From an uncultured Gammaproteobacteria bacterium (lineage in GTDB: Bacteria; Patescibacteriota; Patescibacteriia; UBA9934): a stretch of 64,000 nt of DNA. Positions 57,608 to 58,497 of this stretch are shown here, piece by piece. The notes beneath the pieces are model-generated. The model was given only the letters and a program-made list of their open reading frames with translations, made no database searches and was not told where the DNA came from. The stretch is taken from the NCBI GenBank assembly GCA_964613815.1, contig CAZTKG010000002.1, positions 23,737 to 87,736 of the forward strand, in the 5' to 3' direction. Position 1 is the first letter of the stretch, and the number at the start of each line of letters is the position of its first letter. The position numbers were made by a program, and so were the translations under genes.

Positions 57608-57673
57608 AATACAAAAATACTCCGCTTAATTTAGCGAAGTACTTTTGGCGGGGCGTAGTGGAATGGGTTGGAA
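57608..57673. repeat. 66-bp direct repeat, copy 1 (contains a - strand intrinsic terminator: uacuucgc-uaaauuaa-gcggagua + U-run)
   Basis: ~95% identical to the copy at 58432-58497. Lies just downstream of the ribD_C gene on the - strand. Confidence 0.85.
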
Positions 57674-57693
57674 GATGGTTTATTCAAAGTCCT

Positions 57694-58419
57694 TCACTTA
57701 TTTAGCACTTTATACTTCACATGAAGAAATGATTTTTTCAATTGTTCCGCTGTGATCAATTTTAGGGGTACGAGCTTGTCGAGTTCGCTTGTGCGATGCA
57801 GTGCCTCTCCATCCATCAGGGTTGGTGTTGTGGACCCACCTACCATAATCGGGGCAACGACCAAGGAAATGTGATCAATAAGTCCAGATCGCAACAGGTG
57901 TGCATTCATCGTTCCACCAGATTGAACGGTCATTTGTCTTACACTGTGTTCGTTATAGAGTGATGCAAATAGTTTTTTAAAGTTTATCTTTCTCGAAAAG
58001 TGCATCACGGTTATATTATCAAGTTCTTTTTGAAGTTTGTAAGCAGGATGTTTCTTGTTTGTTGTAGCGATGAAAACATGTTCCAACCACTTTGAGAGAT
58101 GCTGGATGCCAGACGCTTTTAGGTGGGGCTTGTTGTCAACAAGAACAAAACGAACAGGAAGACTTTCTTTTGGGCTCTTGCGTTCATTGATGCCAACCTT
58201 GGCCATAACTTTTCCGGTATTAAACGAGACAAGATCTGTTTGTTGTTCTAATTCGTAATACTGACTCAATCCTTCCTTCACACCTGTAATTTTTTTCCAG
58301 TCTTGATCTACATCGAGTTCATCCGTGTCTCCACTGGAGATCTTTCCATCTAGACTCGACAACATGAAGAGGGTGGTTTTTGGGCGTTTCATACCTAACA
58401 ATTCTATCATTTTTTCCAA
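57694..58419 (-). CDS. RibD C-terminal domain / dihydrofolate reductase-like reductase
   Basis: PKTTLFMLSSLDGKIS...VQSGGTMNAHLLRSGLIDHISLVVAPIMVGG (RibD_C/DHFR-like fold). AT-rich and atypical versus its neighbours. Confidence 0.75.
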   Translation of the reverse strand: MEKMIELLGMKRPKTTLFMLSSLDGKISSGDTDELDVDQDWKKITGVKEGLSQYYELEQQTDLVSFNTGKVMAKVGINERKSPKESLPVRFVLVDNKPHLKASGIQHLSKWLEHVFIATTNKKHPAYKLQKELDNITVMHFSRKINFKKLFASLYNEHSVRQMTVQSGGTMNAHLLRSGLIDHISLVVAPIMVGGSTTPTLMDGEALHRTSELDKLVPLKLITAEQLKKSFLHVKYKVLNK

Positions 58420-58431
58420 CCATCATGTCCG

Positions 58432-58497
58432 AATACAAAAATACTCCGCTTAAATTAGCGAAGTACTTTTGGCGGGGCGTAGTGGAGGGGGTTGGAA
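58432..58497. repeat. 66-bp direct repeat, copy 2
   Basis: See copy 1. Lies 13 nt upstream of the ribD_C start codon and ~120 nt downstream of the sigma gene. Confidence 0.85.

Follow-up and report, generated by a model that had tools for sequence, protein, structure and literature searches.

In T4-type phages, terminator/promoter cassettes known as promoter-early stem-loops (PeSLs) recur between genes, and recombination between two flanking copies excises or inserts single genes via mini-circles (Arbiol et al., 2010, PMC2839356; Comeau et al., 2014, PMC4122927). Here we describe a similar arrangement in a 64-kb stretch of DNA (hereafter the window, meaning the whole stretch that was analyzed) from a host resembling the Candidate Phyla Radiation (CPR)/Patescibacteria, where a reductase gene, ribD_C, is bracketed by two copies of an intergenic module. 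The best explanation that we can offer, by analogy with the phage system, is PeSL-like gene shuffling through repeated modules, and we put its chance of being correct at about even. Both kinds of element are repeated intergenic sequences of ~60–100 bp in which a stem-loop terminator is joined to a promoter element, a putative one in the modules, and both span the interval between a stop codon and the following start codon; repeated intergenic stem-loop motifs with this span were found in the window and in two other loci, L008 and L061. Both also flank non-essential, variable genes, a gene caught between two copies being the signature of recombination. The differences are likewise clear, since the sequences are unrelated, PeSLs belong to the hyperplastic region of a phage whereas the present copies lie on a CPR-like bacterial chromosome, and the modules described here have a 28-nt box ahead of the hairpin and only a −10-like element with no −35. 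Neither the mini-circles nor the presence/absence polymorphism known from PeSLs was observed at the ribD_C locus. How genes flow in CPR/Patescibacteria is poorly understood, and their tiny genomes hold few classical mobile elements; if the explanation is true, recombination handles of this type would be a simple, integrase-free way to swap accessory metabolism, as PeSLs are in T4-type phages.

Paired repeats around ribD_C and a family of intergenic modules

On the minus strand of the window the order is RNase III, a sigma-70 factor, the right repeat (R), ribD_C (57694–58410 in the public annotation) and the left repeat (L), with a YibE_F gene (56439–57578, plus strand) converging on them. A repeat search returned the pair 57605–57686 (L) and 58429–58510 (R) as 82 nt at 89% identity, and blastn gave a core of 66 nt at 95.5% (57608–57673 and 58432–58497), which bears out the first-pass annotation in its report of two ~95% identical 66-bp repeats on either side of the gene. 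The window has exactly two occurrences of a 43-nt core pattern, against none expected from shuffled sequence, and blastn found no third copy in ~70 kb of host DNA (the window and its extensions in contigs L001 and L002). The similarity is unevenly distributed: a 55-nt core differs by one mismatch between the copies, and on the side toward the gene the similarity fades gradually (27 nt at ~67%).

Each copy folds on the coding (minus) strand into a 15-bp stem, AAAAGUACUUCGCU / AGCGGAGUAUUUUU, closed by a 6-nt loop and joining an A-tract to a U-tract, with fold z-scores of −3.3 and −3.6 for the two copies; the terminator hairpin with a U-run that had been proposed for each repeat is thus well predicted. 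The plus-strand version contains a C·A mismatch and scores worse. Counted with its A-U extensions, the stem has the core ACUUCGCU/AGCGGAGU followed by AUUUUUGU and lies downstream of a gene, as an intrinsic terminator does, and we predict each repeat to be an intrinsic terminator of the bidirectional type. A simple consensus terminator scan listed neither copy, probably because the U-run is taken up by the A-U extension of the stem.

The two copies are not equally complete. The L copy, with its 28-nt box TTCCAACCCATTCCACTACGCCCCGCCA at 57673–57646 and the A-tract, 15-bp hairpin and U-tract at 57647–57612, lies between the convergent ribD_C and YibE_F genes, next to a change in composition at 57588 that makes it the left edge of a foreign block (see below), and it lacks the inverted box at the 3′ end that the R copy has. 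The R copy lies upstream of ribD_C, 105 nt 3′ of the sigma stop codon, with its box TTCCAACCCCCTCCACTACGCCCCGCCA at 58497–58470 and its hairpin at 58471–58436. In the DNA fold, the full R element extends over 58414–58497 (minus strand), where an outer 8-bp stem pairs TTCCAACC (58497–58490) with GGTTGGAA (58421–58414) and encloses both the box and the terminator hairpin.

Thirteen loci with RibD_C homologs were checked for direct repeats across the gene, which were also present in L008, the closest homolog (72% identity), and in L058. In three metagenome contigs, L008, its extension L111, and L061, which comes from the same sample as L008, one composite element occurs in many intergenic copies. 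It starts right after a stop codon with a 28-nt box, TTCTGAACCCGTTCAGTATTCGGAGCCA or TTCTAACATCCTCTACTACTCGGAGCCA. Behind the box lie a terminator hairpin with a T-run, its sequence differing between copies, and the start of the box in inverted form, TTCAGAAC or TTAGAAC, and the element ends in an extended −10-like TGnTAnAnT located 8–10 nt before the next ATG. The inverted ends, read directly from the modules of L008 and L061, are GTTCTGAA...TTCAGAAC and GTTCTAA...TTAGAAC. Read in the sense of the gene, the R copy of the window has the same build and the same length: TTCCAACCCCCTCCACTACGCCCCGCCA, the hairpin, GGTTGGAA, TGATAGAAT, 8 nt and an ATG. The consensus of the 28-nt box is TTCYRAAC...GCCA. 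Among 128,000 window positions compared with the L061 box, the R copy ranked first (20/28) and the L copy was tied second (18/28); conversely, in 1.39 million positions of non-host loci, the only match to the window box at 20/28 or better was L061:3246, located just past a stop codon and before a terminator hairpin. From box to T-run, five copies align without gaps and at equal length. The box is found at least five times in the 11.4 kb of L111 and several times in the 3.5 kb of L061, against two occurrences in 70 kb of host DNA, both of them in the foreign block. We take the repeat of the window to be a diverged member of this dispersed family of intergenic modules, an assignment for which position and architecture speak more strongly than the alignment score.

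The final part of the R element bears on where ribD_C begins. The public start is the ATG at 58410, which gives 238 aa, and the longest open reading frame (ORF; 57694–58419, minus strand) starts at a TTG at 58419; alignments with homologs begin at residue 7 of the 238-aa protein, that is, at the Met encoded at 58392 (ATG 58392–58390). The extended −10-like element TGATAGAAT (58401–58409, minus strand), read directly, lies 8 nt upstream of this conserved ATG and coincides in position with the arrangement TGGTATACT, 9 nt, ATG upstream of the L008 and L061 homologs. Because the homolog alignments start at residue 7 and a −10-like element precedes it, the true start is probably Met7, which would give a protein of 232 aa and would mean that the public start is mis-called. 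TGATAGAAT would then serve as the promoter of a near-leaderless ribD_C mRNA.

In the related loci, too, single genes lie between module copies. In L008, ribD_C itself lies between two modules, flanked by an identical 29-nt box; two more genes of this locus are enclosed by repeats, one of 336 aa by 114-nt copies (91%) and a GIY-YIG gene by 32-nt hairpin copies (97–100%), and a gene of the dCMP/CMP-deaminase family lies two genes downstream of ribD_C. L008 and L061 share homology (80%) over ribD_C alone, beginning ~20 nt before its ATG and ending close to its stop codon, and their flanks are unrelated and rich in modules. L058, with a RibD_C homolog at 51% identity in a contig of 64–67% GC, has the 21-nt direct repeat TGCARTGGGACAGACCAACTG (95%) at 1844–1864 and 2596–2616, and GACGATTCA likewise on both sides of the gene, so that it is a third lineage with the repeat-ribD_C-repeat layout. 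The homologous genes in L008, L009 and L010 all have a GC content of 0.41. Bracketing by two terminator-bearing copies, as at ribD_C, is typical of recombination at repeated sites; homologs in other loci likewise lie between direct repeats, in contexts that vary.

As a separate observation in L008/L111 (1467–1871, 5403–5848 and 7689–7822), GIY-YIG endonuclease genes sit inside modules, between the GGAGCC end of the box and the terminator half GGCGGAGGATTTTTG, and a 135-nt variant of the module occurs twice, at 1467 and 7689. The location of these genes inside modules suggests homing endonucleases that target the module itself.

An imported block in a strand-biased host

The host DNA is strongly asymmetric, with a GC skew of +0.3 to +0.5 in each kilobase. 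In native genes, whichever their orientation, that is, throughout the window outside 57588–63196 and in positions 1–5626 of L001/L002, the fraction of G+T at third codon positions of the plus strand is 0.86–0.90 (for example, 39 G to 1 C), the GC skew at third positions is +0.6 to +0.96 and the AT skew −0.35 to −0.7. None of about 40 loci from related lineages of the CPR exceeds an absolute value of 0.15. Such an extreme bias may reflect a lost repair function or an unusual mode of replication, and it is perhaps the most unusual feature of the window. With almost no C at third positions on one strand, the bias is close to saturation, so that recent imports become visible base by base.

Five genes from ribD_C to p415 stand out from this background, with a third-position G+T of 0.50–0.64 on the plus strand (0.53 for ribD_C). 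A two-state maximum-likelihood model placed the change points at 57588, 10 nt past the YibE_F stop codon, and at 63196, at tRNA-Asp, with a log-likelihood ratio of 127; the strand bias resumes beyond the tRNA gene. The bias-free block of 5.6 kb (57588–63196) contains, besides ribD_C, the sigma-70 factor (58616–59626, minus), RNase III (59623–60345, minus), which it overlaps by ATGA, the orphan p355 (60480–61547, minus) and the orphan p415 (61694–62941, plus), the latter followed by terminators, and it ends at tRNA-Asp (63114–63190, minus). Its sharp borders and deviant third positions are those of horizontally acquired DNA. As a measure of protein composition, the count of amino acids encoded by G/T-rich codons was divided by that of amino acids encoded by A/C-rich codons, and the value was set against the family mean. 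This ratio is 0.92 in the RibD_C protein (family 1.02 ± 0.15) and 1.07 in the sigma factor (family 1.06 ± 0.16), whereas native YibE_F is shifted to 3.18 (family 1.89 ± 0.32). A half-ameliorated inversion, meaning a native segment that was turned around and has come part of the way back to equilibrium, would likewise have balanced third positions; these values argue against it as the origin of the block, the two block proteins being at their family means and the native protein shifted. Because the third positions are unbiased while the composition of the RibD_C and sigma proteins is not shifted, the block is recently acquired foreign DNA. A misassembly is unlikely, since four assemblies, each of a different sample, carry the arrangement with 100% identity.

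Two statements of the first-pass annotation need revision in this light. The AT-richness of ribD_C is real, with a GC content of 0.410 against 0.478 ± 0.029 in 33 native genes, and moderate (z = −2.37): a GC content this low is also found in one native gene and in 1.8% of equally long native segments, and the strand composition, a trait that ribD_C shares with four neighbors, is a far stronger anomaly. The idea that the insertion of ribD_C duplicated the terminator of the upstream sigma gene is not supported, since the sigma gene lies in the same bias-free block and was therefore itself imported, and the repeat is a member of a dispersed module family. Because L008 has the same module-ribD_C-module layout, both repeat copies may have arrived together with the gene.

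The block is not uniform. GC is 0.411 in the module-ribD_C-module unit and 0.500 in the remainder, with a difference at third positions of p = 0.02, and ribD_C and the sigma gene are less strand-biased than the other three genes (p = 1e-4), so that more than one layer of acquisition is possible. As in genomic islands at tRNA genes, a deviant multi-kb block abuts the 3′ side of tRNA-Asp; unlike in those islands, no integrase was found, and the far border has no directly repeated tRNA 3′ end. The possibility that the repeat is left over from a tRNA 3′ end, as an island's att site would be, was dropped, as ARAGORN and Rfam found nothing and a hand alignment to tRNA-Asp was poor. A phage origin was also rejected: four block proteins had no meaningful relatives in IMG/VR, and 48 matches to the box pattern were at chance level, none of them followed by GCCA and a hairpin.

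How ribD_C came to lie between two modules

Shuffling of the PeSL kind would account for these observations as follows. Each repeat would be a copy of a modular intergenic element in which the 28-nt box is followed by a bidirectional intrinsic terminator, with the R copy, which is complete, adding an inverted 8-nt box and, shortly ahead of the start codon, a −10-like element. The R copy would end sigma transcription and probably carries the ribD_C promoter, and the L copy would end the transcription of both ribD_C and the convergent YibE_F. The module-ribD_C-module unit, at the left end of an imported 5.6-kb block adjoining tRNA-Asp in a CPR/Patescibacteria-like host, would be a single-gene unit moved by homologous recombination between dispersed modules, which left one copy on each side. 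The last recombination may have taken place in the host, into a module downstream of the sigma gene, or in the donor before transfer. We favor recombination through modules because the pattern of L008 and L061 is the one described for PeSL cassettes.

Several points weigh against this explanation. The homology of the box is short (20/28), a local alignment score of 32 was also reached by 3 of 21,570 control tiles, and blastn-short reported no box match at E ≤ 1. MAFFT gave no consistent alignment of the variable module hairpins, so no covariance model could be built from them. The extended −10-like TGnTAnAnT that precedes the ATG by 8–10 nt in the window, L008 and L061 has no visible −35 and received no call at TGATAGAAT from a consensus promoter scan, and in the L009 homolog the −10-like hexamer is too near the ATG. 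The two halves of the repeat have no exact match in genome_contigs or metagenome_contigs, the source contig included, both collections evidently being without this organism. No empty site, circular junction or polymorphic strain was seen, all host contigs being identical here, and the stretch from the sigma gene to p415, from an unsampled donor, may have come in the same event as ribD_C or in a second one. The relatives in which an empty site might be sought, those of YibE_F (at most 62% identity) and of the sigma factor (at most 40%; flanking genes 39–62%), are distant and have neither synteny nor strand bias. An apparent sigma variant at 59% identity (P0122; L005, L006 and L007) was discarded as coming from chimeric Logan contigs, which are 99.6–99.9% identical to the window down to 59231, inside the conserved sigma region-2 motif, and then pass into a canonical rpoD and a tRNA gene.

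The foremost alternative, which we regard as possible rather than probable, is that ribD_C was never inserted separately: the entire 5.6-kb block, or else a fragment with ribD_C and its two modules, would have come in as a single piece from a donor that regularly has this module between its genes, the two copies being neighboring members of the dispersed family kept similar by selection or gene conversion. The module-ribD_C-module layout of L008 and the position of both copies inside the bias-free block agree with it, the gradual decay on the gene-proximal side (27 nt, ~67%) fits older paralogous 3′ regions with a conserved functional core, and the block has a second repeated regulatory motif (see below). 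Its difficulties are the compositional difference between the ribD_C unit and the rest of the block and the single mismatch in 55 nt, which suggests a recent common origin of the copies. This alternative departs from PeSL-like shuffling only in the place and time of the last recombination.

It is unlikely that the modules are non-autonomous elements resembling miniature inverted-repeat transposable elements (MITEs) or repetitive extragenic palindromic (REP) sequences, with terminal inverted repeats of 7–8 bp, of which two landed around ribD_C. Like these elements and the bacterial interspersed mosaic elements (BIMEs) formed with REP sequences, the modules are short, multicopy, intergenic hairpin elements downstream of genes, some of the known ones acting as terminators, and the complete modules have inverted ends (TTCCAACC/GGTTGGAA in the R copy, and GTTCTGAA/TTCAGAAC and GTTCTAA/TTAGAAC in L008 and L061); a possible 6-nt flanking duplication, CAGAAT, was read directly at L061:3240. 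In contrast, the right inverted end is missing from the L copy, no consistent target-site duplication was found, and searches of the block and of 11.4 kb of L111 found neither a transposase nor a REP-associated tyrosine transposase (RAYT) gene. Moreover, it is the hairpin that varies in the modules, and the non-palindromic 28-nt box and the spacing that are conserved, which is a better fit to a functional terminator module than to an element that has transposed recently.

A bolder proposal, to which we give little credence, is that the modules are recognition sites of a portable gene-exchange system of CPR/Patescibacteria, either integron-like, with a recombinase and a new type of site, or made up of self-mobile terminator/promoter modules. 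If it were true, this system would move accessory genes one at a time, among them those for ribD_C, dCMP deaminase, nucleotidyltransferases and GIY-YIG endonucleases, between distantly related ultra-small bacteria, and the strand bias of the present host would make their arrivals datable.

The repeats as sites of the att or attC type, with ribD_C as a cassette mobilized by a recombinase encoded elsewhere, are very improbable. As in integron cassettes, including those with dfrA and dfrB, a single ORF takes up nearly the whole interval between two foldable direct repeats, and the R copy has boxes resembling RYYYAAC and GTTRRRY, namely TTCCAAC and GTTGGAA, each at 6/7, complementary to one another and ~70 nt apart; L008 further has an array of co-oriented small accessory genes, including a KNTase_C nucleotidyltransferase. 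Unlike in integrons, searches of every block ORF with Pfam, NCBIfam and PHROGs found neither IntI nor another recombinase domain, and none was found in 11.4 kb of L111 either. The gene p415, which adjoins tRNA-Asp, was considered as a hidden integrase and rejected, since its AlphaFold model (predicted local distance difference test score, pLDDT, 75) consists of three putative winged-helix domains with disordered linkers and has no PDB match at E < 0.001. An attC site has R″ and R′ boxes at its two ends and paired L boxes; here, the L copy lacks the core box of the R′ type, the identity between the copies ends 9–10 nt before the putative crossover point, and large unpaired loops take the place of paired L boxes, so that the fold is not attC-like. 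In addition, ribD_C and the other genes appear to have −10 elements of their own, and ribD_C probably its own promoter. Of the cassette-like acquisition read from the locus at first, the foreign origin of ribD_C and its bracketing by terminator-bearing copies stand; no integrase or transposase was found, and the repeats do not have the features of attC.

Most improbable of all, the repeats might be two paralogous small-RNA genes (a C-rich motif and a terminator) or regulatory elements of 3′ untranslated regions in an incidental position, for which a C-rich single-stranded stretch UCCAACCCCCUCCACUACGCCCCGCC ahead of the terminator, a weak RsaE/RoxS-like Rfam match (20.2 bits, E = 1.1) and a promoter-like site at 58526–58499 just upstream of the R copy may be cited, set against a score far under the gathering threshold of 79, a −35 region that the L copy does not have in common, and boxes in L008 and L061 that begin right after stop codons, in a 3′-flank position.

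The reductase and further features of the window

The product of ribD_C matches Pfam RibD_C (PF01872) over residues 13–220 with 65.7 bits (cut-off 24.1, E = 6e-18), and no Pfam dihydrofolate reductase (DHFR) family matches at E ≤ 0.01, RibD_C being the sole match. The conserved GG(T) NADPH-binding region is present. The nearest PDB chains are the archaeal Rib7-type pyrimidine reductases of riboflavin synthesis, 2azn (E = 2e-13) and 5xv0 (E = 5e-10). Judged by these profiles, the protein is a stand-alone NADPH-dependent reductase of the RibD_C family, with a DHFR-like fold and no assigned substrate. It shares its Pfam domain with archaeal Rib7/MjaRED (2AZN, 5XV0) and with RibD of Mycobacterium tuberculosis (Rv2671; PMC10812664), and differs from riboflavin reductases in being a stand-alone protein and in falling far below the NCBIfam equivalog cut-offs (TIGR01508, 54.9 vs. 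186.45; TIGR00326, 26.7 vs. 156.35; TIGR00227, 66.6 vs. 150).

The first-pass annotation had likened the gene to trimethoprim-resistance dfr cassettes and had called for its classification by hidden Markov models as RibD_C or DfrA/DfrB. The answer is RibD_C alone, and the analogy fails: because only RibD_C matches and the nearest structures are Rib7-type reductases, homology places the protein outside both the DfrA and the DfrB type of DHFR, that is, neither DHFR_1 (DfrA) nor the SH3-like fold of DfrB. For resistance surveillance the outcome is negative, the locus not being a dfr-type cassette, and there is no evidence for an integron, a transposon or a resistance function at ribD_C. RibD of M. 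tuberculosis (Rv2671) has weak DHFR activity (PMC10812664), and a folate-type substrate is for that reason conceivable for the present protein by analogy. Sequence searches returned about 1500 RibD_C homologs, the best 120 of them at 49% identity or more and those with names mostly from Patescibacteria, which places the protein in a large CPR-wide family.

Among the other genes of the block, the Cys-rich p355 has CxxC zinc-ribbon motifs and no family or PDB match, and p415 is without a Pfam match and has only 11 homologs in a set of 1.84 billion representatives. The second repeated motif of the block is a 26-nt sequence of 5′ untranslated regions, TTTTGTCCTnGTTCTTTyCAyGGAGA, found upstream of RNase III (60350–60375, minus) and, divergently placed, upstream of p415 (61662–61687, plus). 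As they lie in the window, the two copies are 88% complementary to one another; the motif is shared by the two leaders at 88% and ends in a Shine-Dalgarno-like GGAGA, and it may be a regulatory leader that both imported genes have in common.

Smaller patches of reduced strand bias, with a G+T of 0.54–0.58, occur in the window at 10800–12000, 13200–13800, 27811–28560 and 29600–30400. The first of these contains tRNA-Met and tRNA-Leu, and the others could be older or smaller imports; the gene at 27811–28560 has a GC content of 0.388 and a third-position GC skew of 0.35.

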